Counted from the first letter of the stretch, positions 808-32,995 are shown. The stretch: 64,000 nt of DNA from Candidatus Heimdallarchaeum aukensis (GCA_021513695.1 CP084166.1:992001-1056000), one strand, 5' to 3'. Notes: generated by a model from the sequence alone, not told the origin. Program-made: numbers and translations.

Positions 808-1065
808 ATGAATATGAAAATGAAAATTGTAGAATGGAAATGGACTATACTTTCTGTTTTAATTACAACAATTTCCTTAATTTTAACAATAGTTTACGGC
901 TTTCCATTTTTATTTCTAATGATTTTTCCTCCCCTATTCTTAGGAAGAAAAAAATGGAAATTTTACGAAGAAGAACTAGTTGGGCAATACTGTGAGAATT
1001 GTGGATACCAATACCAAGGTTTTGAACAATACTGCCCTATATGTGGTTTTAAGAAAAATAAATGA
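808..1065 (+). CDS. Small membrane protein with a C-terminal CxxC...CxxC zinc ribbon
   Basis: A hydrophobic N-terminal half (two predicted TM helices) is followed by CENCGYQYQGFEQYCPICGF. Confidence 0.4.
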   Translation: MNMKMKIVEWKWTILSVLITTISLILTIVYGFPFLFLMIFPPLFLGRKKWKFYEEELVGQYCENCGYQYQGFEQYCPICGFKKNK

Positions 1066-1085
1066 ATAAAAAAAAGAAGGGAGAA

Positions 1086-2231
1086 TTAAAGAATTTGTGT
1101 AATGTTTTTTTCTACCCATTCAATAGGTTGATCGAACACTTCTTCTTTTCCTGCTTTCCATGATTTTGTTTCTGTATCAAAGTTTTTGTGATAAAACCAA
1201 TAGAGCATACTGTGGATATGATCCAGATGGTAATACTCAAGTTTGTCACATATCCCCCATAATAGATTGCTAAAAGCAGATGTATATACGGGAGGTAAAT
1301 TAAGTCTCCATAAAAACCCATCTTCTAGAAGAACAAATCCTGAATCAAAGGGAACCGGTGAATCATGAAGTAATTTGTAAAGTTTAAACTTGACTTCATC
1401 TGAACAATAAGCTCTAAACATTATTAGATCAACAAATTGAACTTTAGCTCTCCTATAGCCTAATCTGTATTCTTTGATTACATTATCGTTGAGAAATTTT
1501 ATTCTGCGAGTAATTGTAGCAGGAGAAACAGAAAATTTATTTGCTAATTCAATTTTTGAAAATTCTCTAGCATCCTTTGTTAACTGACGTAGTAATAAAA
1601 GGTCGATTTCAGTTAGTTTTTCCATCACATTTTTACATTGGTGAGGTTGATAGTTGTTTTCAAAAGACATGGTTAAGAAGTGCTTAAACCAAGAACCTAG
1701 GTTTATTTTTCCATCTTCAATTTGCCAGACCCATTCTCCTTTGTCATTGTCATAAAAAGTGAAATCAGGAAAATTGCTGTGGTGATAATCTAGTGAAGGA
1801 AGAGTATTGAAGCTGTCAATTATATTGAGTTTCATTAGTTCTGTAAAAAGATCTTCCAAATATCTGTATGCAGACTGAGGAATGTTGAATTGCAAAAAAA
1901 GTCCTTGTCTACTACCAATAACCCTGTTTCTGTAACTTGTGAAATTATGAAAATCGGCAAGTTTTTCCAAGAATTTTATATTAGATAATTTATTTGATTC
2001 GACAAAAACACTGTAGGTTTTAAGACCTATTGAATCCACACAAATTCTGGCTTGAACACTTTCTAACCCAGCTTTATTTCCAACTTTTTTACCAATATAC
2101 CCTTCAGAGACTAAAATATTATAATGTGCTTTAGCTGTTTTATCTGTAATTCCTAATGCACTAGCTATTTCAGTGAAACTAGCTAATGGATTCTTCTGTA
2201 AATACTGAAATTCTTTGAAGTACGGAATCAT
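1086..2231 (-). CDS. Transcriptional regulator with two winged-HTH domains (Lrp/TrmB-like)
   Basis: There are two HTH-like segments: FTEIASALGITDKTAKAHYNILVSEGYI and LLRQLTKDAREFSKIELANKFSVSPATITRRIKFL. The ATG at 2229-2231 was checked against the sequence. Confidence 0.55.
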   Translation of the reverse strand: MIPYFKEFQYLQKNPLASFTEIASALGITDKTAKAHYNILVSEGYIGKKVGNKAGLESVQARICVDSIGLKTYSVFVESNKLSNIKFLEKLADFHNFTSYRNRVIGSRQGLFLQFNIPQSAYRYLEDLFTELMKLNIIDSFNTLPSLDYHHSNFPDFTFYDNDKGEWVWQIEDGKINLGSWFKHFLTMSFENNYQPHQCKNVMEKLTEIDLLLLRQLTKDAREFSKIELANKFSVSPATITRRIKFLNDNVIKEYRLGYRRAKVQFVDLIMFRAYCSDEVKFKLYKLLHDSPVPFDSGFVLLEDGFLWRLNLPPVYTSAFSNLLWGICDKLEYYHLDHIHSMLYWFYHKNFDTETKSWKAGKEEVFDQPIEWVEKNITQIL

Positions 2232-2281
2232 CTATTTTGTCTCCTAACAAGGTTAATAATAAAGTTGAGAAAAATTAATTT

Positions 2282-2740
2282 TTAAATAACTCTTATACCA
2301 ACGTATGGATCTCCTTCACTTCCTCCAGGGGGGTCAAAAATCATTATGTCAGTTACCGATAACCATCCATTGTTATTGGTTATGATAGAAGCTTCAACTA
2401 TATAGTCTCCAGAAACAGTAGCATGATTATAGAAAATAACTTCAAATCTTAATGATTTCAAGGAAGTAAATACGTGATACATAACTGTACTTTCTTCATT
2501 AATGGGGTTAGTTAGCGTCACTACTAAATAGTATTTTTCAGTGGTTGAACTTGTATCTACATTAACTGTTAAGTAAGTATAAATGTCAGTATCGATATAA
2601 TACGCGTCATCAATTATAATTTCATGTACATCAACAGAAAGTGTTCTCACAGATGCTGCATCTACTGCAGCGATTTGAGAAATAAAAAATAAACTAGAGA
2701 TCAAAAGCAAATATGAGAGCAATTTATATTTACTATTCAT
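2282..2740 (-). CDS. Secreted hypothetical protein (signal peptide)
   Basis: N-terminal MNSKYKLLSYLLLISSLFFISQIAAVDAAS has signal-peptide character. No recognisable catalytic motif. Confidence 0.4.
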   Translation of the reverse strand: MNSKYKLLSYLLLISSLFFISQIAAVDAASVRTLSVDVHEIIIDDAYYIDTDIYTYLTVNVDTSSTTEKYYLVVTLTNPINEESTVMYHVFTSLKSLRFEVIFYNHATVSGDYIVEASIITNNNGWLSVTDIMIFDPPGGSEGDPYVGIRVI

Positions 2741-2824
2741 ATGAAAAAGAAAGTTTTTTATTATAAAAATTTTTCCGAAAAATTTACTTTCAATTGAATA
2801 AGAAAAAAAGAAATTTCTATCTCG

Positions 2825-3625
2825 TTAGAGATAGAAGAAAACTCCGGTATCGCCATCAAATTCTTGAGGTGTATCTCCACCGTCATAAGGATAAACGGAT
2901 AGAGCACTATCAAAAGTCTCTTCCATTGAAGCTGAACCACCATATATTCCAATAAGAGTGTATTCTAAGAAGTAATAGGTCCAAGCTCCATTTTGATGAG
3001 TAGGATCATCATATCCGTATCCATCGTCGGTGCAGGTTGTGGTCATATACACCTTAGCAGCATTAGCGTTTTCCATAACTTCATTCATACCGCCACTGAA
3101 GCAGTGATCAAGGAAAATGAAGGTGTTACTTACAGATGGGGCCATCATATCTTTAAGTTCTGAGTCATAAATTAGACCATCTTCTCCATTTTGACCAGCA
3201 CTTGTGTCCCACATGCATAATGCTTGAACATAGACACGAGTCCATCTGCTTCTTCCACCAATGTTGACCTCTGTTCCATGACCTGAACTTATGAATGCTA
3301 CGATATCGTTTTCGTCAGCTTGTGCAAGTATGTTTGCCCAAGCAGTTTTTACGTTATATTCTGTGGCTAATCCATCATATTGTGGATAATTTGCAGGATT
3401 GCTATCTCCTAATAATACTATTTGATAGCCTAATCCATTTAAGTAATTATACCAATCGGTAGCATCTTCATCGCAGTATGATAAGTCGCTAATTACGTCA
3501 TAGTCGCTTATACCGATAATAAGAGCATATTTGTCAACAGGATCAACTACAGCTTTTGCTGCTGTTATTGATGTAAACAATACCATCAAACCGATAAAAC
3601 CCATAAGGATTGTTTTTCTTTTCAT
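2825..3625 (-). CDS. Secreted caspase-like (clan CD) cysteine peptidase
   Basis: A signal peptide is followed by YALIIGISDY...SSGHG...FLDHCFSGG, the His-Gly and Cys dyad arrangement typical of caspase/legumain/gingipain-type peptidases. Confidence 0.5.
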   Translation of the reverse strand: MKRKTILMGFIGLMVLFTSITAAKAVVDPVDKYALIIGISDYDVISDLSYCDEDATDWYNYLNGLGYQIVLLGDSNPANYPQYDGLATEYNVKTAWANILAQADENDIVAFISSGHGTEVNIGGRSRWTRVYVQALCMWDTSAGQNGEDGLIYDSELKDMMAPSVSNTFIFLDHCFSGGMNEVMENANAAKVYMTTTCTDDGYGYDDPTHQNGAWTYYFLEYTLIGIYGGSASMEETFDSALSVYPYDGGDTPQEFDGDTGVFFYL

Positions 3626-4033
3626 TTGTTATCACTTGGGTTAAACCCAATTAAATTCGATTTTTTTAATTAATAAAGGTTATGAAAAAAATCAGAAAAA
3701 GCAAATTAAAAATTCCGAAAAATATTATATATCTTTCTTTTTTCAATATTCTGAAGAAAATAATAAAAAAAGGTAAAGTAAGGCAAAAAAATAGAAAAAA
3801 GAAGGAAAAGTGATGTCAGAAAAAACAGAAATTAACAAATTTACATAGAAATTTTCTTATTTAGTGTAAGTAATGCAAATGAGAATTGAAATGAAACGAA
3901 GTTAAATTGTTAAATTAGCTTAAAGAACATATTTGTAAATTAATGAAGAAAGGTGTATCCGAAAAATAAAACTTTTGAAATAGTGCAAAAACGTACAGAT
4001 AAACTATTTAAACAGATTTTTTAATATTAATTT

Positions 4034-4765
4034 ATGTCTCATAATTTTCAGTTTTTAACTTGGGAAGATGTAAAGAATCTAGATAAAGAGAAAACAGTTA
4101 TACTTCTTCCTTTAGGAAGCATTGAACAACATGGACCTCAAAATCCTATAGGGACTGATTATCTTATTTCTTCATATATTGCAGAAAAGTCTTCAGAAAA
4201 AAACCCGATGGCTTACTGTTTACCTCCAATACCTGTAGGTGTTTCTTCACATCACCGTAACTTTCCTGGAACTTTATGGTTCAGTCCAGAAGTGTTTAGA
4301 TCTATAATTAAAGAAATATTTCTGGCTCTTAAACACCACGGATTCAAGAAAATTATCGTTGTAAATGGACATGGAGGAAATACTGCTTCAATAATGGAAG
4401 TTATTGGAGAATTTAATGATAAACATGATTTTGTCTCCCTATTGTTTGAGTGGTGGAAAGATGAAAAGATATTAGAAGAAGTTATAGGTCATTCACAAGT
4501 TATCCATGCAGATGAGGTAGAAACTTCTGTAATCTGGGCTGTTAATGAGGAATACGTGAAGAAAGAGAAATTTGAAAATTTGACTTCATCTCCAAAGTGG
4601 GGAAGATATATTGGTGATCTATTTCTTTCTTCTCGGACAGACCAATTCACAGAGAGTGGTATTGCTGGGGCTTTAAATAACATTTCTCGTGAGAATGGTT
4701 TGAAAATATTAGAAGAATGTATAAAGAAACTTGATAGACACATTGATCTTTTAAGTAAGTACTAA
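4034..4765 (+). CDS. Creatininase-family amidohydrolase (ArfB-like formamide hydrolase family)
   Basis: Motifs LPLGSIEQHGPQNP, VVNGHGGN and HADEVETS match the creatinine amidohydrolase fold and its metal ligands. Confidence 0.7.
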   Translation: MSHNFQFLTWEDVKNLDKEKTVILLPLGSIEQHGPQNPIGTDYLISSYIAEKSSEKNPMAYCLPPIPVGVSSHHRNFPGTLWFSPEVFRSIIKEIFLALKHHGFKKIIVVNGHGGNTASIMEVIGEFNDKHDFVSLLFEWWKDEKILEEVIGHSQVIHADEVETSVIWAVNEEYVKKEKFENLTSSPKWGRYIGDLFLSSRTDQFTESGIAGALNNISRENGLKILEECIKKLDRHIDLLSKY

Positions 4766-4912
4766 TTTTTTACTTTTTTTTAAAGGTAAATAGGATGATT
4801 CTCTTTTTCCGAAATTCGAAATTATAGGAAAAGGGGAAAAAAGAAGAGAAGAGGAAAAAAAGAAGAAGAAAGGAGAGGGGAGGAGAGAAGAGGAGTGGAG
4901 TGAAGATGAGGG

Positions 4913-4921
4913 TTTTAAATA
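4913..4921 (+). promoter_or_regulatory. Archaeal TATA box of the tnpB promoter
   Basis: ttttaaata lies about 30 bp upstream of the tnpB ATG (4951) and is preceded by a G-rich BRE-like stretch (gatgaggg). The same box, as ctataaaaacccc, sits upstream of the second tnpB. Confidence 0.4.
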
Positions 4922-4950
4922 GGGAAAAAAAGTAAGATAAATGAAAAAAA

Positions 4951-6208
4951 ATGAGGAAAAAGGTGTGGCGAACTGAGGAAATATGGGTGAAAGATTCGAT
5001 CACTCTAAAACAGTTAGCACACAAGGTAAAAAACTTGTATAATCAAGCAAATTACATTATTAAGTATCAGTTAAGAAGAAGTAAATATTTCACAAAAGAG
5101 TTTGAACTAATGAATATTTTAAGGTATCACCCCGACTTACACAGCTTTACCTGGTCATACGGCACAACAGACGATAAAGTTTCTATGTTTAGCGTGGAAA
5201 GGGTATTTTAGGTCTTTAGAAGAATGGAAAAAGGAACCAGAAAAGTTTAACGGTAAACCTCGTCCTCCAAGATATAAGAAGAAAGAGGGACTAGGTATAA
5301 TCTATTTTACTAACTCTCAAGTGAAAATTAAAGAAGAAAAAGAAAAAGAAAAGAAAAGTAAAGGTAAATTCTTTATCTCTTTTCCTAAACGTGTAGGACT
5401 AAAGATAGTTACAAGACTCGACCCTTCAACTAAAGTGAAGTTTGCCCGGCTCATACCTATGGGAACGAAGTTTAAATTAGAGATAGTTTACGAGAAAGAG
5501 ATAGAAGAGCTAAAAGAACGACCAGCAGAAAGAGTTTTAGCTCTTGTTCTGGGAGTGAATAACCTTGTAGCTGGTTTGACCACTATTCCTGGTGAAAAAG
5601 GCTTCCTGATAAATGGTCGGCCCATTAAAGCTGTTAATCAGTGGTTCAACAAACGTAAAGCAAAATTACAGTCAATCTATGACAGACAAGGGTTAACCAC
5701 TTGGGGAAGAAAAATGCTCACCCTCCAGTTAGAGCGAATGTGTAAAATAGCTGACTATTTCCATAAAGCAAGTAGAAAAATAGTAGACTACTGTTTAGAA
5801 AAAAACATTGATACAATAGTTATAGGTTATAACCCCCGATGGAAACAGAAGGTTGATATGGGTAAAAAAAATAACCAAAACTTCGTTTTTATCCCCTTCA
5901 AAACCCTCATTGATAAAATCACTTACAAAGCAGAAGAAAAAGGAATAAAAGTTATTCCTACCAAAGAATATTACACTTCTGTCTGCAGTTTCTTGGATAA
6001 TGAAGAGATAGCTTTTCACACTCATTATGCTGGTAAAAGGATCCACCGTGGACTGTTTATCAGTGCCCAAGGATTAAGAATTAACGCTGATATCAACTCT
6101 GCAGGTAATATCGGTCGCAAAGTATTCCCCACGTTATTCTCTGTTATGTCTAACTACGGGATAGTCTGGGGTGCCGTGGTTCACCCTGTCCGTTGGAAAA
6201 TAAGTTAG
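4951..6208 (+). pseudogene. tnpB: tnpB (IS605 OrfB / RNA-guided nuclease family), frameshifted and catalytically degenerate
   Basis: The N-terminal 86 aa (frame 1, 4951-5211) and the remainder (frame 2, open from 5123 to 6208) join as ...YHPDLHS|LPGHTAQQTIKFLCLAWKGYFRSLEEWKK..., which matches the TnpB region around the conserved ...lpsqsaQq...afk.ff... segment. A +1/-1 shift therefore lies near 5125-5150. The RuvC-I segment reads ALVLGVNNL where GIDLG is expected, so the Asp is lost. The RuvC-III segment NADINSAGNI is retained. Only one Cys remains in the zinc-finger region. Confidence 0.65.
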
Positions 6209-6375
6209 CAAGTTAAGTTAGTCCAGCTCTTACGCTGTTCTTTCTCTTTCTTTATTTTTCGACCGACTAAACTTACTACTTCTTCCGATTTTTAATCAAA
6301 ATCGGAATTTGGGAAAAGGTAAACCATAAAACTTAAAACACCCTTTTTTTTGCTTGCTTATCTTAAGGTGTTTAA

Positions 6376-7662
6376 ATGACTGAACAGTTGGATCTCTCTT
6401 TGGTATATACTCCTAAAGAACAATATCTTACTCTAATTGGGGTAGTTATGGCTTGGATGTTTGATGCAGCAGATTTTTTGCTGTTGACATTCTTAATTAT
6501 ACAAATTGGAGAAGATTTTGGGATAGACTCTCATACAAAGAGCTGGTTATTAGGATTGCAGTTACTGGGTACAGGATTAGGAGGATTACTTTTTGGTTAC
6601 TTAGGTGATATTTTAGGAAGAAAAAGAACTTTGATTTTTGTTATTAGTATATATAGTATTTGTACAGCAGCAACAGCTTTCGTATGGACTATTGAAGCTT
6701 TATTTGTAGTTCGGATATTAACTGGATTTGGTGTAGGAGGAGTATGGGCTTTAGGTTCAAGTCTTATTTCAGAAATATGGCCAAAAGAAAAAAGAAATGT
6801 AGGAATAGCAATAACACAAGCAGGATGGCCTTTAGGTGAACTGATCGCTGCTTTAATTGTATCATTTATTGTTCCAGTTTTTGATGCTTCACATGTTGTT
6901 GTAGGCTCAAAAGTATTGCATGGATGGAGAATGGCTTTTCTCTTTGGGGGTTTAGCACTTTTTAGTGCATTATTTATTCACCTTTTTGTTCCAGAATCAA
7001 AGGGGTGGAAGAAAAAACAATCCTTAAAATTGAAAGACAGAGGAGAAAATAATCTAGAAATAAGAGTTTTCAGGGAACTTTTCTCTAAAAGATTGTTCAA
7101 AACGTTTCTTTTAGGTTTATTATTTGGTATTACTGGAATGATGACTTTCTATTCAATAAATTCATGGCTACCTGAATATTTCCAAAGAAATGGTTTAAAA
7201 CTGAAAGATTCTGCTTTAATGATCGGTTTATTTTGGGGAACCTCTGGATATATTGGACATGTGCTTTTTGGATTTATATCAAATAAAATAGGTAGAAAAC
7301 CTACTTTTATTGGTTATACTTCTTTGGTTGTATCTTCTGGAATCATAATGTATCTCTGGGTAACTGAAACATGGGCAAAATATTTAGGTTTGGCCTTATT
7401 TACATTTGGTTGTGGATACTTCTCAAGTTTTGGTGCAGTGTTCAGCGAGATTTATCCAACTGAGGTGAGAAGCACAGCTTCATCAATCTCATATAATGGA
7501 GCTAGAGGTTTTTCATTAGTTGCACCTCCATTGGTCATTTGGGTAGGAGACGTCTTTAATAACATGGGTGCAGGCTTAATGGTTGGTGGATTCTTTGTTA
7601 TTTTAAGTTCTATAATATTGTTCTTTCTTCCAACAAAAGAAGGACAAGATATTATAGACTAA
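6376..7662 (+). CDS. MFS transporter
   Basis: About 12 predicted TM helices and the MFS loop motif GYLGDILGRKRTLIF between TM2 and TM3. Confidence 0.8.
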   Translation: MTEQLDLSLVYTPKEQYLTLIGVVMAWMFDAADFLLLTFLIIQIGEDFGIDSHTKSWLLGLQLLGTGLGGLLFGYLGDILGRKRTLIFVISIYSICTAATAFVWTIEALFVVRILTGFGVGGVWALGSSLISEIWPKEKRNVGIAITQAGWPLGELIAALIVSFIVPVFDASHVVVGSKVLHGWRMAFLFGGLALFSALFIHLFVPESKGWKKKQSLKLKDRGENNLEIRVFRELFSKRLFKTFLLGLLFGITGMMTFYSINSWLPEYFQRNGLKLKDSALMIGLFWGTSGYIGHVLFGFISNKIGRKPTFIGYTSLVVSSGIIMYLWVTETWAKYLGLALFTFGCGYFSSFGAVFSEIYPTEVRSTASSISYNGARGFSLVAPPLVIWVGDVFNNMGAGLMVGGFFVILSSIILFFLPTKEGQDIID

Positions 7663-7826
7663 TTTTTTATTTTTTAAATAACTATTAAGAGACTGTTAGG
7701 AATAATTGTATTAACTTTTTGGCATATTCGTTTAAATAGATTATTTAAGTTCAATTTAATCTCTTTTTCAAAAAACTTTGCTTAATTCAAACGAAAAAAT
7801 TCTTAAATACTTCATAGATTTTAGTC

Positions 7827-9539
7827 TTGTTGAATATGAGTACGCTAGATGAAGTTCCACAAGAATTAATTGAACAAAGATTAAGATATGAAGCATTAGG
7901 ATTAAGTATCAATACAGGAAATAAAATTGCAAGCTGGTTGAAAGTTTTGTATACTTTTTGCTTGATTATACTTTTGCCTACTTTACTATTACTATCTGAT
8001 CCATTAAAGGATAATGTCACATACATGTACCAGGCACTAGGTATTGGATTCAGAATCTTGTTAGCTTCAATGATTATTTATTTTATTTCAAAAATAGCTC
8101 CACTTCTTTATGCAGCTAAAAATGATTATAATAAATTGTTAAGTACAGTAGGCTACAATGACCCTGAAAAAAATACTAAAGATGAGGTTCAATTAGTTAG
8201 AAGGAAGTTTGTTATCGATTACATTTACTTAATATCTTTAATATCTGTTCTTCTAAGCGTGTTTGTAGTTAATAACAGAAACAATATTGCTTTTATTATA
8301 GGTCATGAAGTAATTGTTTTTGTTATTCTTGTTGGATTAATTCTAATTTGGAAATTTTGGTTGTATAAAGATTCTACAAAAGTGCCCTTTTTAGGAGGAC
8401 GGTTACTCGTTTTGTCTTTCATTCCTTTAGTAACCGTTTGGGGAATTGAAATATTTATAGAATTTTTCAGTACTCTATCAAAACCAAGATTTGATTTTAA
8501 CAGGCTACAATTAACTTATTCATTAGTTTATCCAATTGTCTTCATTTTGATATCAGTTGCTGTTTTAATTTCTACAAAGAAAACAAAAAGAGAAAAGCTA
8601 GCATTAAGAAAAGAGAAAGATTATGAAATTACTCGTAAGTCAAAGTTTATTGAAGATAAAAATGTATTAAGCAAAGCCTTTTTCAAAATTGAAACAACAA
8701 TATACAAGATAAAGTCAACTTTTCGAAAAGAAATGGACGAACAGAAACTTGAGAAAAAACTGGATAAAAAACCAAGTTATATACTAGTCCAAAGTATTTG
8801 GATTGCATTGATTCTTTCCTTTATACCTCTTTCAATTCTGATATCATGGAACCTTTTCCCGCATGATGGAATCTTTATGATTGTTTCTGTTATAACAGCA
8901 TATGTTTATTCAATGGTTAAATATCATCGCTATGACATAGATGTAATAGGATATATAGAGAAAAAAGCAGAAAAAGAACCTCCATTACTCAGAAAACCAG
9001 AAATTTCTTCACAACTATTTCAATCTCTCTCATTAGTTAGTGTAGTATTTATTGTAGCAATTATGATCGTAGGACCTATTATTACAAAAGGAGATTACTC
9101 TGGTTTTAACGGAATGATTGTTACTGCATTCTCCTGGATCAGTGTTATTCTTTCGTTTCCTCTTTCTATTAGACTTATGTACTTCTTGAAACAAGGATTT
9201 GATGAAACTAGAAGAAAAGAAGATACTGCACTTCCTCTACAAACTCTTCTACCTATATTAATAATGGAACTTGCATTAGTAATCGGAATGTTTGCAGCAC
9301 ACATTTATGTGCCAAATTTTGGGATACAATTTCTAGCTAACATCTCTTTCTACTTGATTTTATTAATTATATTCTTAGTTCTAGTTATTCCTATTTCATA
9401 CATTCTTGTAGTACCATTTGCAAAAGATGATAAACAATACCAAATTATTACAATAGGTTTCTATGCTTTGCTATTCTGTTCTATTATGGGTTCATTTGTT
9501 TGGTTTATTTTTGATGTTATAATAGGACAATTTTCTTAA
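7827..9539 (+). CDS. Polytopic membrane protein, function unknown
   Basis: Hydrophobic segments run along the whole 570 aa. No catalytic motif recognised. Confidence 0.45.
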   Translation: MLNMSTLDEVPQELIEQRLRYEALGLSINTGNKIASWLKVLYTFCLIILLPTLLLLSDPLKDNVTYMYQALGIGFRILLASMIIYFISKIAPLLYAAKNDYNKLLSTVGYNDPEKNTKDEVQLVRRKFVIDYIYLISLISVLLSVFVVNNRNNIAFIIGHEVIVFVILVGLILIWKFWLYKDSTKVPFLGGRLLVLSFIPLVTVWGIEIFIEFFSTLSKPRFDFNRLQLTYSLVYPIVFILISVAVLISTKKTKREKLALRKEKDYEITRKSKFIEDKNVLSKAFFKIETTIYKIKSTFRKEMDEQKLEKKLDKKPSYILVQSIWIALILSFIPLSILISWNLFPHDGIFMIVSVITAYVYSMVKYHRYDIDVIGYIEKKAEKEPPLLRKPEISSQLFQSLSLVSVVFIVAIMIVGPIITKGDYSGFNGMIVTAFSWISVILSFPLSIRLMYFLKQGFDETRRKEDTALPLQTLLPILIMELALVIGMFAAHIYVPNFGIQFLANISFYLILLIIFLVLVIPISYILVVPFAKDDKQYQIITIGFYALLFCSIMGSFVWFIFDVIIGQFS

Positions 9540-9563
9540 CTTTCTCTTTTTTTTGTGATTTGA

Positions 9564-10313
9564 ATGACCTATATGATAAAGACACTAAATTTGACAAAAT
9601 CATTCAAAGAAAAAGTAGCTGTAAATAACATGAACTTACTTGTACCAAAAGGTACTATATATGCTCTTCTTGGACCTAATGGGGCAGGAAAAACAACCAC
9701 TATTCGTTTACTTTTAGGTTTGTTAAAACCTGATTATGGAAAAATCGAAATAAATAACATTGATGTTGTATCACAACCTAAGGAAATAAGAGGAAAAATA
9801 GCCCTATTGCCCCAAATATCTGCTGCATACCATGATCTGACTCCAATGCAAAATATAAAATTCATACTTGAGTTAAATAATATTCAGTTTGATGAGGTAA
9901 AAGCGGAATTAAACTATTATTTGAGAAGGTTAGAAATAACAGCTGATCTTCTTCTAAAACCTTTCTCCAAACTATCAGGAGGAGAACAAAGAGCTATTTC
10001 TTTTATCATGACCATTATACTAAATAAAGACTTTCTTATCCTAGATGAACCTACAAGTGGGCTCGATATCTCTAGAGGAAAATATGTTCGCGAAATAATT
10101 CTTGATCTCGCGAAAAAAGGAAAAACGATAATGTTATCTTCCCATATTATCTCAGATTTGGAAGAACTGGCAGAGTATTGCGGTATAATGAAAAATGGTT
10201 TTCTCACTTTCCAAGATAAAAAAGAGAAGCTTATAGAGAAGTATGCTCCGAACACTGAAGATTTCGAAGAAGCTATTATACAAGCATTTAGAGCTCCTAT
10301 AAACGGTGAATAA
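9564..10313 (+). CDS. ABC transporter ATP-binding protein
   Basis: Walker A LLGPNGAGKTTT, ABC signature LSGGEQRA, Walker B ILDEPTSGLD and an H-loop SSH. Confidence 0.85.
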   Translation: MTYMIKTLNLTKSFKEKVAVNNMNLLVPKGTIYALLGPNGAGKTTTIRLLLGLLKPDYGKIEINNIDVVSQPKEIRGKIALLPQISAAYHDLTPMQNIKFILELNNIQFDEVKAELNYYLRRLEITADLLLKPFSKLSGGEQRAISFIMTIILNKDFLILDEPTSGLDISRGKYVREIILDLAKKGKTIMLSSHIISDLEELAEYCGIMKNGFLTFQDKKEKLIEKYAPNTEDFEEAIIQAFRAPINGE

Positions 10314-11541
10314 GATGAAAGAAACTAAAAAGACTTTGAAGAAAAAATTAAACTTACAACAATTTAAGGCAATTTTAAAGAAAGATTTATCCTTACTATT
10401 TAGAAAAAAAATAGCTTTCTTCATATTTGGAGGACCGTTCTTATTAATGTTTTTTATGTTTATAATCCCAACTCTTTTTTCGACTTCTACTCAATTGAAT
10501 CTTCTGATATATAATGAAGATCAAGGATACATGGATCAAAATATAGGGGACTTAATAGTTCAATCATTAAATCTATATTATTCATCAAATGATTCTCTTG
10601 TATCAGTAATTTTGGTCGATAATTACTCTGCAATTTTAAAAACAGAAGACCTGGGATTATATATTCCCTCGAATTTTTCTACTCTCGCATTTTCTTCATC
10701 ACCAAGTTTGTACATAGTTGATACCCTACAAACAATCACTTCTCAAACGCAAATATCAATTATCTACAATATTTGTCAGAAAGTCATGACCACTGCTATA
10801 GCAAATAGATCTATTCCTGACATTCAAACTGTTCAAGTTTCTCCAGTTTCAGGAACAGGAGAACAAAGTCTAAGCGTTAAAGCTTCAATTGTCGCGTATC
10901 CTCTGGGATATATGATCTTTTTACTGATTGCATTGAACTCTTCATCAAATAGTCTAATAGGTTTTGCAAGAGAAAAAAGAATGCGAACTATGGAAATAAT
11001 GCTAGCATATACAATAAACCATCGTTCTCTCATTATCTCAAAAGTAATTACTGGCGTAGTAGCTTCTGTAGGGTCAACACTCTCTTATTTTCTAGGAGTA
11101 GGAGCTGCAGCATTAATTATTAATAGAAACTCTGAAACTAATTTCTTTGATATCTTTTCTTTAAATCTTAACTTGCTCAATTTTTGGGATATTCTTTTGG
11201 TAATATTGAGTGTAATTGTTGCTCTATTTCTTTCTACTTTAATGACTATGGCCGTTGACTGTAATTTAACAAGAGAAGCTAGTGAAAGATTAAGCCCTTT
11301 GATATCAATAGGCTTTAGTTTCTTCTTCTATTTCTTGATAATTGTAAATCCTTTTGCTTTTTCAACAGCGTTGATGATTAATCCTTTTTATTGGCCATAT
11401 AGACTTGTACTACTAGTAGTATCAAAGAAATTCACCATAGAGGTGATAATATATATAATTGAAATCATATCATTAACTTTCATACTAATATATTTTGCAA
11501 CAAGAGGAATTGAAAAAGAGAAAAACTTATACTTAGAATAA
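10306..11541 (+). CDS. ABC-2 type transporter permease
   Basis: Overlaps the upstream ABC ATPase by 8 nt, suggesting an operon. It has an N-terminal TM helix, a large extracytoplasmic loop and then about 5 TM helices, which is ABC-2 permease topology. Confidence 0.6.
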   Translation: MNKMKETKKTLKKKLNLQQFKAILKKDLSLLFRKKIAFFIFGGPFLLMFFMFIIPTLFSTSTQLNLLIYNEDQGYMDQNIGDLIVQSLNLYYSSNDSLVSVILVDNYSAILKTEDLGLYIPSNFSTLAFSSSPSLYIVDTLQTITSQTQISIIYNICQKVMTTAIANRSIPDIQTVQVSPVSGTGEQSLSVKASIVAYPLGYMIFLLIALNSSSNSLIGFAREKRMRTMEIMLAYTINHRSLIISKVITGVVASVGSTLSYFLGVGAAALIINRNSETNFFDIFSLNLNLLNFWDILLVILSVIVALFLSTLMTMAVDCNLTREASERLSPLISIGFSFFFYFLIIVNPFAFSTALMINPFYWPYRLVLLVVSKKFTIEVIIYIIEIISLTFILIYFATRGIEKEKNLYLE

Positions 11542-31174: not shown

Positions 31175-32995
31175 CTCAACCAAGCCATACAATGCTATGA
31201 AGAGGATGAGACAGACATCATACACGAATCGTGGGAATCATAAAGAAGAAAAGAACTAAAAACTCTTTTCTTCACTCCACGAGAGACAAAAAGAAAGAAA
31301 GATTTCCTCCTCCTACAGGAGAGAATTTGTCCTTTCGTTTTTGTCTACTGGGACTGCAACCAATGGCTGAGCCCTAGGCAAACAGTGAAATGGGTAGAAC
31401 TGTATCTTTGACCAGTGAGGTAATCAGTGATAGTGTTTCCTTGAGGACTGAAAAGAGCACCAAGGAACTTACGAGCGATATTCATTGCTCCTGTGAGGTC
31501 AGAGTGGAAAGTGTAATTGCAAGAAGAACAATGAACTAAACCTCTTACTGGACGGACAACTTTCCTTCCACAACGAGCACAGTGAGAAGATGTCCCTTTT
31601 TCCTCTATCGTTAATATTCGGTGAGGGTCAAAACCTCTTAATATTAGTGCCCGACGGAGAAGAGTAAGAACAAGGTAAAAATTCCACTGATGAAGTTTCC
31701 TGCGAAACTTACGAGTACTTTTACCTTTCTCTTTTCCTTTCTCCTCGCGAACATGTTTAGGGTAACCTACAACGACGAAAAGGTCATACATTCGCGCATA
31801 GGTCTCTATCGTCTGCACAACCTCACTTACAAATTGGTAAATATAGGCTCGTTTAACGTTTCTATATCTTCTTCGAAGAAGACTAAGAAAACGATAAACT
31901 TGATGTTTTTTACCCGACTGGTCGTTTAAAGCTGCTTTTCTCTGAAGACGGGAAAGTTTGACTTTATATCGATGGTTGACTCTATTCCACTGTTTGGTAT
32001 GCCAGAATTTTATCTCCTTACTTGTTAATTTCTTTTTAGGGGTTAGTAACACTCCTGCAGCAGGAATGTTTATCCCTAGATCTATTCCCAGCACAGCTGG
32101 GGGGAGAGAAGAAGAATTCTCTTCTTTAGGAGGATAAAAAGAAGAAGGAAGAACTCTTAGTTGGAAATACACCCACCATTCATGTGTAGAACGTTTATAT
32201 CTTAGTTCTAAACTTTTCACCCTCCCTTTTTTTAACTCTTTCTGGTGGAAAGTGCTCATCTCTAAAGGTAACCATAACTTCTGATGATAGGAGGTGTTTC
32301 TTCTCCACGTATCTAACGAGTCTCTTATCCCCACCCACCAACGAGTGAGAGTGTTATTCTTCTCTTTAGGTAAATGGACGAGAACGAACCTCTTTGCATT
32401 AATTAGTTGTCTTCTCACTCTCTTTATTGGAGGACGAGTAGAACTGGGTTTATAACCTTGTTCGTATAATTGCACAGCTATATCTCTACATTCTTGAAAT
32501 TCGTTGTGGGAACAATAAGGGAACATTTTCTTCAGGTCGTGAGGAACAGTCTTTCTTCTCTCTTCTTCTTTAACTTTTGAAGTCGTTAGCGTCAATTCAT
32601 CTAGTTTTCCTCTATGAACTCTTATTTTCCCTTTTTTAGTTTTAGCACATATTTTTCTTCTGTTGTGATGAATTATTCTCACATACTTCTCTATTATCCT
32701 CGTGTCTCTCCCCGTTATTCTCCTTAACCTTTCCTTTTTCCTCGTCGTCAACACCTCATTCTTTATTCTCACTTTCAAGGTTTTGACGACGTCCTCCACC
32801 ATTCTTTTCCTTCCTTCTTTTCTTTTTCTGTTTATTTTTTCTCTTGTTTTTTCTTCTTATCTTTTTTTATTCTACTTTTTTTCCCTATAAAAACCCCTCT
32901 CCTCTTTCTCCTCTCCTTTCTTCTCTTTTTTCTCTCCTTCTTCCTCAACAACTGTAAATTACGTGAAAAATAGACACATGGTGACACAGGAAAAA
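31175..32995 (-). mobile_element. IS200/IS605-family TnpB-only element: leader, tnpB and a 3' flank that may encode a guide RNA
   Basis: The upstream leader on the gene strand (32803-32990 on +) is purine-rich and carries ctataaaaacccc. That sequence is homologous to the leader of the first element (cttactttttttccctat..aaaaccc shared). The 3' flank at 31175-31345 shares tctttctttcttt and gtggagtgaaga with the first element. Confidence 0.55.
31345..32802 (-). CDS. tnpB: TnpB (IS605 OrfB-family RNA-guided nuclease homolog), apparently intact
   Basis: RuvC-I is AVLGIDLGINIPAAG, the zinc finger is HCARCGRKV...CSSCNYTF and RuvC-III is HSDLTGAMNIARKF. The RuvC-II position reads VVVGYPKHV, with no Glu at the canonical position. 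The other copy has the same change, so it may be a family feature. Confidence 0.75.
   Translation of the reverse strand: MVEDVVKTLKVRIKNEVLTTRKKERLRRITGRDTRIIEKYVRIIHHNRRKICAKTKKGKIRVHRGKLDELTLTTSKVKEEERRKTVPHDLKKMFPYCSHNEFQECRDIAVQLYEQGYKPSSTRPPIKRVRRQLINAKRFVLVHLPKEKNNTLTRWWVGIRDSLDTWRRNTSYHQKLWLPLEMSTFHQKELKKGRVKSLELRYKRSTHEWWVYFQLRVLPSSFYPPKEENSSSLPPAVLGIDLGINIPAAGVLLTPKKKLTSKEIKFWHTKQWNRVNHRYKVKLSRLQRKAALNDQSGKKHQVYRFLSLLRRRYRNVKRAYIYQFVSEVVQTIETYARMYDLFVVVGYPKHVREEKGKEKGKSTRKFRRKLHQWNFYLVLTLLRRALILRGFDPHRILTIEEKGTSSHCARCGRKVVRPVRGLVHCSSCNYTFHSDLTGAMNIARKFLGALFSPQGNTITDYLTGQRYSSTHFTVCLGLSHWLQSQ

Follow-up and report, generated by a model that had tools for sequence, protein, structure and literature searches.

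Probable decay of a predicted tnpB-only IS200/IS605-type element in Candidatus Heimdallarchaeum aukensis

A stretch of 64,000 nt from the genome of Candidatus Heimdallarchaeum aukensis (GCA_021513695.1, CP084166.1:992001-1056000), with a G+C content of about 30% and hereafter called the window, carries a tnpB gene in two pieces between a creatininase-family gene and a gene for a transporter of the major facilitator superfamily (MFS). A preliminary description of this DNA asked whether the gene belonged to a decaying insertion sequence (IS) or encoded a domesticated TnpB of the TldR type. The comparison with related loci indicates that positions 4794-6327 are very probably a decaying, non-autonomous IS copy, in which tnpB is a pseudogene inside a still recognisable IS and no functional nuclease is encoded. 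No evidence of a new function was found, and TldR-like domestication is not supported.

The broken tnpB gene and its relatives

The first piece of the gene is an open reading frame (ORF) of 86 aa at 4951..5211, and the body follows in the next frame up to the stop at 6208. With one C fewer in the CCCC run at 5130-5133, both pieces join as a 418-aa protein, which matched the NCBIfam model NF040570 (guided_TnpB) with 150.6 bits (cut-off 100) over profile positions 14-389 of 389. In Pfam, the gene matched OrfB_IS605 (PF01385, 8.8e-16) and Cas12f1-like_TNB (PF07282, 3.5e-09). The frameshift proposed in the preliminary description was thus confirmed in the assembled sequence.

Six related copies were compared with this element. 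Two of them, L002 (a metagenome-assembled genome of Heimdallarchaeaceae) and L003 (a metagenome contig from the Joint Genome Institute, JGI), share this insertion between the creatininase-family gene and the MFS gene and are orthologous loci; their flanks and those of the window agree at 97-99% identity. The other four are paralogs: L001, L005 and L006 represent one other genomic site and L004 a third one, L006 being part of the complete Ca. Heimdallarchaeum endolithica PR6 genome.

Two lesions distinguish the window copy. At the frameshift site the window reads CACCCCGAC, where L002, L003 and L001 read CA-TCCGAC and L004 reads CA-CCCGAC; all five related DNA copies compared at this run (CA-TCC or CA-CCC) have one base fewer. 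The second lesion affects the RuvC-I motif, which reads LVLGVNNL in the window copy as a result of an A to T change at 5547. L001 to L006 present GAT at this codon, so the change from Asp to Val noticed in the preliminary description is real in the assembly and private to the window copy. The orthologs L002 and L003 both keep GAT (Asp) and both lack the extra C. Consequently, the gene does not present what a functional nuclease needs: its frame is broken at 5130-5133 and the RuvC-I Asp is Val199, with E339 and D380 kept.

The related copies are damaged in other ways. L002 lacks 89 nt (window 5676-5764) and a further 18 nt with which the tip of the right end has gone, and L003 lost a core RuvC segment through a 111-nt deletion (5849-5959). 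Such independent, non-overlapping lesions in orthologous copies point to neutral decay after fixation of the insertion. Concerning the paralogs, L004 carries a 70-nt deletion, and the promoter and the start codon are deleted in L001 and L005, which makes three damaged sequences among the four recovered. L006 is the only intact copy, with a 414-aa ORF that has the Asp and a DNA identity of 89% to the window copy.

Moreover, the element diverges faster than its surroundings. Between the window and L002 there are 24 mismatches in 1,423 nt of the IS and 34 in 5,742 nt of the flanks (odds ratio 2.9, P=1.7e-4), and the excess persists (P=0.019) without a 37-nt patch described below. The ratio of nonsynonymous to synonymous substitution rates (dN/dS) between paralogs is 0.13-0.20, so the family has been under selection while active. 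The different large deletions in the orthologs, the damage in the paralogs and the faster divergence all agree with the pseudogene option of the preliminary description.

It should be mentioned that the deletions of L003 and L004 begin at the same base (L003 ~1553, L004 ~1485; window 5848/5849), after GGAAACAG. The deletion of L003 ends at 5959 and that of L004 at 5918, and both contigs come from one JGI study. In the creatininase-family gene, L003 lacks another 26 nt (window 4643-4668), which shifts the frame. This contig, or the population behind it, carries several deletions, and assembly artefacts in it are conceivable.

Regarding the reliability of the window sequence, the coding indels that separate it from L002 over 7.2 kb of shared sequence are confined to the IS, and the flanks, about 5.5 kb, contain none; the sole other indel is 1 nt in an intergenic T-run, at 9546. 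The absence of coding indels in the flanks indicates that the assembly is not generally prone to homopolymer errors. Programmed frameshifting was considered and rejected, since every relative reads straight through with one base fewer at the site.

Two Logan contigs from SRR15988954 (L086 and L087) cover window positions 1034-4977 and 6300-10662. They are 100% identical to the window flanks over 8.3 kb, on both sides of the element, and this indicates that the window strain is present in that sample. The break of the contigs inside the IS suggests that the sample holds further copies or variants. Furthermore, seven differences from the orthologs L002 and L003 cluster in a 37-nt patch around the frameshift (5109-5145); the window agrees with the paralog L004 at five differences in this patch, and the orthologs agree with the paralog L001 at five. 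This distribution suggests gene conversion between IS copies or copies mixed in the assembly.

TnpB family and active-site arrangement

A protein search with the reconstructed TnpB returned 2,912 homologs at E<=1e-10, the nearest of them 89-98% identical over the best local alignment and labelled Heimdallarchaeaceae. A family alignment was built with 117 of these homologs. In this alignment the RuvC-I position is Asp in 116 proteins and Asn in one, and Val was found in none of them. The canonical position of the RuvC-II Glu is occupied by Gly (G292, in the motif IGYNxxWKQ) in 117/117, and a downstream alternative Glu (E339, motif E-x-Y-T-S-K-C) is likewise present in the 117. The RuvC-III Asp (D380, NADxN) is invariant wherever aligned. 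Only the single Cys of the zinc-finger region was recovered, in 114/117 homologs, and neither CxxC pairs nor a CxxC...CxxC zinc finger appeared among the 117 aligned homologs.

The family profile was also compared with protein structures. The best PDB matches were solved Cas12f chains (E ~1e-12), in which IDLGV aligned with idLGv and NADYN with nadvn, and the Glu of TIQME in the Cas12f chain 8j12_A aligned with the Gly of the family (G292). The preliminary description had noted that no Glu stood at the canonical RuvC-II position and had guessed that the catalytic Glu was relocated. The first point proved to be a property of the whole family, at a position that aligns with the catalytic Glu of Cas12f. 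The second agrees with E339 and with the published RuvC-II-rearranged (RIIr) TnpB clades, whose RuvC-II Glu has given way to Gly, with compensation by an alternative Glu (Altae-Tran et al. 2023, PNAS, PMC10691335). Zinc fingers have also been lost in some large TnpB branches (PMC10691335).

Judging from these residues, the TnpB family of the window is of the published RuvC-II-rearranged type. In this clade E339 would take over the role of the RuvC-II Glu that became Gly, and the protein would work with no zinc finger. The absence of the zinc finger and of the RuvC-II Glu are ancestral traits of the family, as they are the same in all the members sampled. Hence the single Cys reported in the preliminary description was recovered, but its interpretation as a lost zinc finger was not, and on the alignment D199V appears as the only abnormality among the catalytic residues of the window copy.

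The preliminary description had taken the TnpB-like gene at 31345-32802 as the intact copy of the same element. This gene was discarded as a reference for the window tnpB as its TnpB family is another and very distant one: tblastn gave no match between both proteins in either direction, even at E<=10. Its protein presents a CxxC...CxxC zinc finger, GIDLG at RuvC-I and HSDLTGAMNI at RuvC-III, together with VVGYPK (Gly at the canonical Glu position) and EEKGTSSHC, which contains a candidate alternative Glu.

Both tnpB-like genes have some features in common upstream. A promoter-like module, GGGTTTTWAWAGGGAAAAAAAGTA, occurs at 4911-4934 (+) and 32873-32896 (-), with these two matches in 64 kb against 0.01 expected. 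A purine-only tract precedes each gene (left ends 4794-4950 and ~32803-32975), and the starts of the left ends are similar (..TTTTTCCGAAAT.. and ..TTTTTCACGTAAT..). The two genes may have a common left-end and promoter cassette or depend on the same trans-acting TnpA.

Ends of the element, predicted omega-RNA and neighbouring genes

The limits of the element were taken from the paralogous copies at the two other genomic sites: the similarity to L001, L005, L006 and L004 (87.6-92.7% identity) begins at 4794 and ends at 6327. The flanks of the window element are common only to the orthologous loci L002 and L003, and those of the paralogs are unrelated. The coordinates of the features are displayed in Table 1.

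Table 1. Positions of the element, its parts and other genes in the window
Feature	Position	Strand	Remarks
Whole IS	4794..6327	+	1,534 bp; tnpB-only, IS200/IS605-type (predicted); limits from paralogous copies at two other genomic sites
Left end	4794..4950	+	Conserved in L004 and in L006; L001 lacks part of it
tnpB N-terminal segment	4951..5132	+	Frame 1, codons 1-60; the frame as it stands runs to the stop at 5209-5211
CCCC run	5130..5133	+	+1 frameshift lesion; one base more than all related copies
tnpB body	5134..6208	+	Frame 2, codons 61-418 and stop; WED/REC and RuvC parts
GTT, Val199	5546..5548	+	Position of the catalytic Asp of RuvC-I; A to T at 5547, seen only in the window copy
G292	5825-5827	+	Canonical RuvC-II Glu position
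E339	5966-5968	+	Alternative Glu; kept in the window copy
D380	6089-6091	+	RuvC-III Asp, motif NADIN; kept in the window copy
Predicted omega-RNA scaffold	6150..6327	+	5' limit approximate; from folds and consensus structure across copies
Candidate guide	6328..6343	+	AAAACTTAAAACACCC, 16 nt of flank after the right end; paralog similarity stops at 6327
Creatininase-family gene	4034..4765	+	Pfam Creatininase, 5.9e-63; neighbour, outside the element
MFS transporter gene	6376..7662	+	Pfam MFS_1, 1.1e-51; neighbour, outside the element
TnpB-like gene	31345-32802	-	485 aa, apparently intact; 78 bits against guided_TnpB, short of the cut-off (100)

Terminal inverted repeats and a target-site duplication are absent, as judged from three independent insertion sites, and the flanks of the window element (..AAATAG(GAT) and AAAACTT..) are not repeats of each other. 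The motif in the left flank is TTGAT at two of the sites and AGGAT at the other, the comparison being limited to these three sites. The first three nucleotides of the element (GAT) may be part of this target motif and not of the left end.

The left end begins with ..CTTTTTCCGAAAT.., followed by a purine-only tract of about 85 nt, and it includes the promoter-like module GGTTTTAAATAGGGAAAAAAAGTA at 4911-4934, about 30 nt before the tnpB ATG. The TATA-like sequence TTTTAAATA lies about 30 nt 5' of this ATG, which supports the earlier observation that the gene has a TATA promoter of its own. A scan for sigma-70 promoters and terminators gave results at chance level, and such signals are not relevant to archaea. 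In the left end, the hairpin was no better than in shuffled sequence (z = -0.8 and 0.0). At the right end, the hairpin at 6283-6307, with a 10-bp stem (TTCCGATTTT/AAAATCGGAA), is strong as folded DNA (z = -3.7).

The element itself contains no tnpA, and a tblastn search for this gene gave no match in the window or around 85 related loci, although this search, with an IS608 TnpA sequence as query, is weak. As far as its anatomy can be read from the sequence, the element is a non-autonomous one of the tnpB-only IS200/IS605 type.

An omega-RNA is predicted from the 3' end of tnpB to the right end. In the scaffold a long stem pairs 6188-6203 with 6252-6267, and the scaffold ends with ..GGTAAACCAT. 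The 3' RNA folds with z = -3.97 in the window copy and z = -3.8 to -6.2 in three other copies. The last ~150 nt fold as a two-domain structure in several copies, and the close copies are too similar for covariation. Among relatives that are 50-60% identical, the equivalent 3' region has six covarying pairs and a conserved terminus, ..TCACTCAT. An Rfam scan of 4600-6500 at E<=10 returned two matches at chance level and no omega-RNA family.

This region has accumulated changes in the window copy. A GCAA insertion (~6208-6216) and five substitutions are private to it, and the substitutions are in excess, with five in 119 nt of the omega-RNA region against nine in the 1,257 coding nucleotides (P=0.005). 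Predicted pairs are broken by at least two of these substitutions (6246 and 6261).

The sequence after ..CCAT differs at each insertion site, as expected for the guide of an omega-RNA. In the window, this candidate guide lies 33-48 nt 5' of the MFS start codon and is directly followed by a run of eight T (6344-6351). This run could be an archaeal terminator that sets the 3' end of the omega-RNA, or it may equally be a terminator that the upstream gene already had. The 16-nt candidate guide had no match but itself in the 64-kb window, and matches with three mismatches occurred at chance level; its template is preceded by the tip of the right end, ..ACCAT, and not by the motif of the left flank. 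The match near the MFS promoter that the preliminary description had considered came down, in the window, to the flank of the element itself. The position of the guide over the likely MFS promoter region is simply where the element landed.

The MFS gene is intact and is conserved in L002 and L086. It is co-directional with tnpB and starts 167 nt after it, at 6376, in agreement with the preliminary description.

In an active copy, by analogy with the known mechanism of the family, TnpB would load the omega-RNA made from the 3' end of tnpB together with the right end, with the DNA past ..CCAT as guide, and the complex would cut the empty target site, favouring the retention and homing of the element. 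The insertion, 48 nt upstream of the MFS gene, probably took place before the strains of the window and of L002 and L003 diverged, and the copies would have decayed since then. The lineage of the window would have gained the 1-nt insertion after codon 60, D199V and several changes in the omega-RNA region.

Decay, domestication and comparison with known systems

Several points weigh against the interpretation of the window copy as a decaying IS. Apart from the frameshift and D199V, its ORF is full length and has E339 and D380, its promoter-like module is intact and the fold of its 3' RNA still resembles that in the other copies. The relaxed-selection test is weak, with n=9 polarised coding changes: six nonsynonymous and three synonymous changes are private to the window, which agrees better with neutrality (P=0.28) than with omega 0.15 (marginally unlikely, P=0.064). 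The extra C is a single-base insertion in a homopolymer, known from the assembly alone, and the Logan short-read contigs of the window strain end at 4977 and restart at 6300, so both lesions are uncovered. No record with the exact protein sequence was found for either ORF fragment (86 aa or 295 aa), and the frameshift allele is therefore without independent confirmation.

An empty site is also missing from the evidence. The empty creatininase-MFS junction would read ..AAATAGGAT joined directly to AAAACTTAAAACACCC.., and a gapped pattern of it gave 0 matches in metagenome_contigs, an uninformative result as this collection evidently lacks these samples. A search for further orthologs with a 32-mer tolerant to D or V gave 0 matches too; this 32-mer occurs in L003, so the collection lacks these samples and the result is equally uninformative.

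Among the other explanations, the one that survives best is that the nuclease gene is dead and the RNA and the ends are alive, so that the omega-RNA of this copy serves the TnpB of intact paralogs and a TnpA moves it in trans. This is unlikely, but it is compatible with the verdict of a tnpB pseudogene. The window copy has an undamaged right-end hairpin and terminal ..GGTAAACCAT, an intact paralog (L006) is found in a related complete genome, and the break of the short-read contigs inside the IS suggests more copies or variants in the sample. However, that paralog is known from a related genome and not from the genome of the window itself, the omega-RNA region carries the private changes mentioned above, with pairs broken at 6246 and 6261, and the ortholog L002 lost the tip of its right end. 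Besides, the weak search for tnpA found none in the window or around the 85 loci.

Concerning domestication, a TldR has been described by an active-site deterioration that is conserved across clades, missing transposon ends, conserved partnerships with new genes and guides that match promoter targets flanked by a target-adjacent motif (TAM) (Wiegand et al., bioRxiv 10.1101/2023.11.30.569447). The window copy resembles these proteins in being a TnpB relative with a mutated RuvC residue next to a co-directional gene unrelated to transposons. It could be a nascent nuclease-dead TnpB if the frameshift were an assembly error, so that a full-length D199V protein bound the omega-RNA and DNA and repressed the MFS promoter or another target. 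The lesion is indeed a 1-nt change in a C-run, a typical site of errors, and E339, D380 and other fold-defining motifs are intact. A structured 3' RNA is still predicted, and the candidate guide lies where an archaeal promoter would be expected. Moreover, one mutated RuvC residue abolishes cleavage, and a TldR can have a single mutated residue (bioRxiv 10.1101/2023.11.30.569447).

Nevertheless, this explanation is very improbable. The deterioration of the TldR active site is clade-wide, whereas Val199 is found in the window only, with Asp in L002, L003 and all the paralogs, and these two orthologs are wrecked by unrelated deletions. The transposon ends, absent from TldR loci, are kept here and are common to mobile paralogs that stand beside unrelated genes, and the association with the MFS gene is limited to near-identical strains. 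As in any IS605 element, the guide is the flank of the insertion site, after ..ACCAT and not after the left-flank motif, and no promoter target flanked by a TAM was found for it within the 64-kb window. The protein is not intact, as the frame is broken in the assembly, and the flanks (~5.5 kb) have no frameshifting indel. The omega-RNA region also carries an excess of private changes (P=0.005). For these reasons, the domesticated TnpB raised in the preliminary description was set aside.

It is hardly credible that the CCCC run owes its extra C to the assembly and that a full-length D199V TnpB is encoded here, as the very first step, in an Asgard archaeon, to a nuclease-dead, RNA-guided DNA binder at the MFS promoter region. 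Even if the frameshift were an artefact, the private mutation and the decay of the orthologs would favour a recent loss-of-function allele over an exapted regulator.

Finally, mixed IS copies collapsed in the assembly could have produced the 37-nt patch, and short-read assemblies fragment at this repeat, but it is barely plausible that both lesions are artefacts and the real gene is an active TnpB, since D199V is a clean substitution ~410 nt away from the patch where the sequence otherwise equals that of the orthologs and differs from the paralogs, no known copy has CCCC or GTT to be mixed in, and the flanks are free of errors against the independent assembly.

With decay as the preferred interpretation, the locus should be annotated as a tnpB pseudogene in a RuvC-II-rearranged, zinc-finger-less, tnpB-only IS200/IS605-type element and not as a candidate regulator, and it is of little importance otherwise. 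On a small scale, it shows cleanly how a single fixed IS insertion decays independently in sister strains of a Heimdall-group archaeon. It also calls for caution in screens for nuclease-dead TnpB proteins, in which the true family and the orthologous loci should be checked before missing motifs are taken as losses.

Compared with the ISDra2 and IS608-type elements (OMEGA systems), the element of the window likewise has no terminal inverted repeats, no target duplication and a subterminal hairpin at the right end. As in those elements, the 3' end of tnpB falls within the predicted omega-RNA scaffold, which stops at the right end, and the adjacent flank would be the guide. TTGAT, which we take to be the TAM of ISDra2, precedes two of the three insertion sites. 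On the other hand, the window element differs in having no tnpA, a rearranged catalytic site and no zinc finger, and its TnpB family is only distantly similar in protein to the canonical clade.

The closest known systems are the RIIr clades (e.g. RIIr-5), with the assignment made by residue pattern at the level of these clades. The C4 zinc finger is reported as absent for some branches in PMC10691335 and, here, is absent in the whole family sampled. The window copy departs from them in the Val at the RuvC-I Asp position and in its broken frame. The features in common are the Gly at RuvC-II, the invariant alternative Glu downstream, the NADxN motif at RuvC-III and the organisation as tnpB-only IS200/IS605-type elements with a 3' omega-RNA. 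The element is an undescribed member, from Heimdallarchaeaceae, of a known family.

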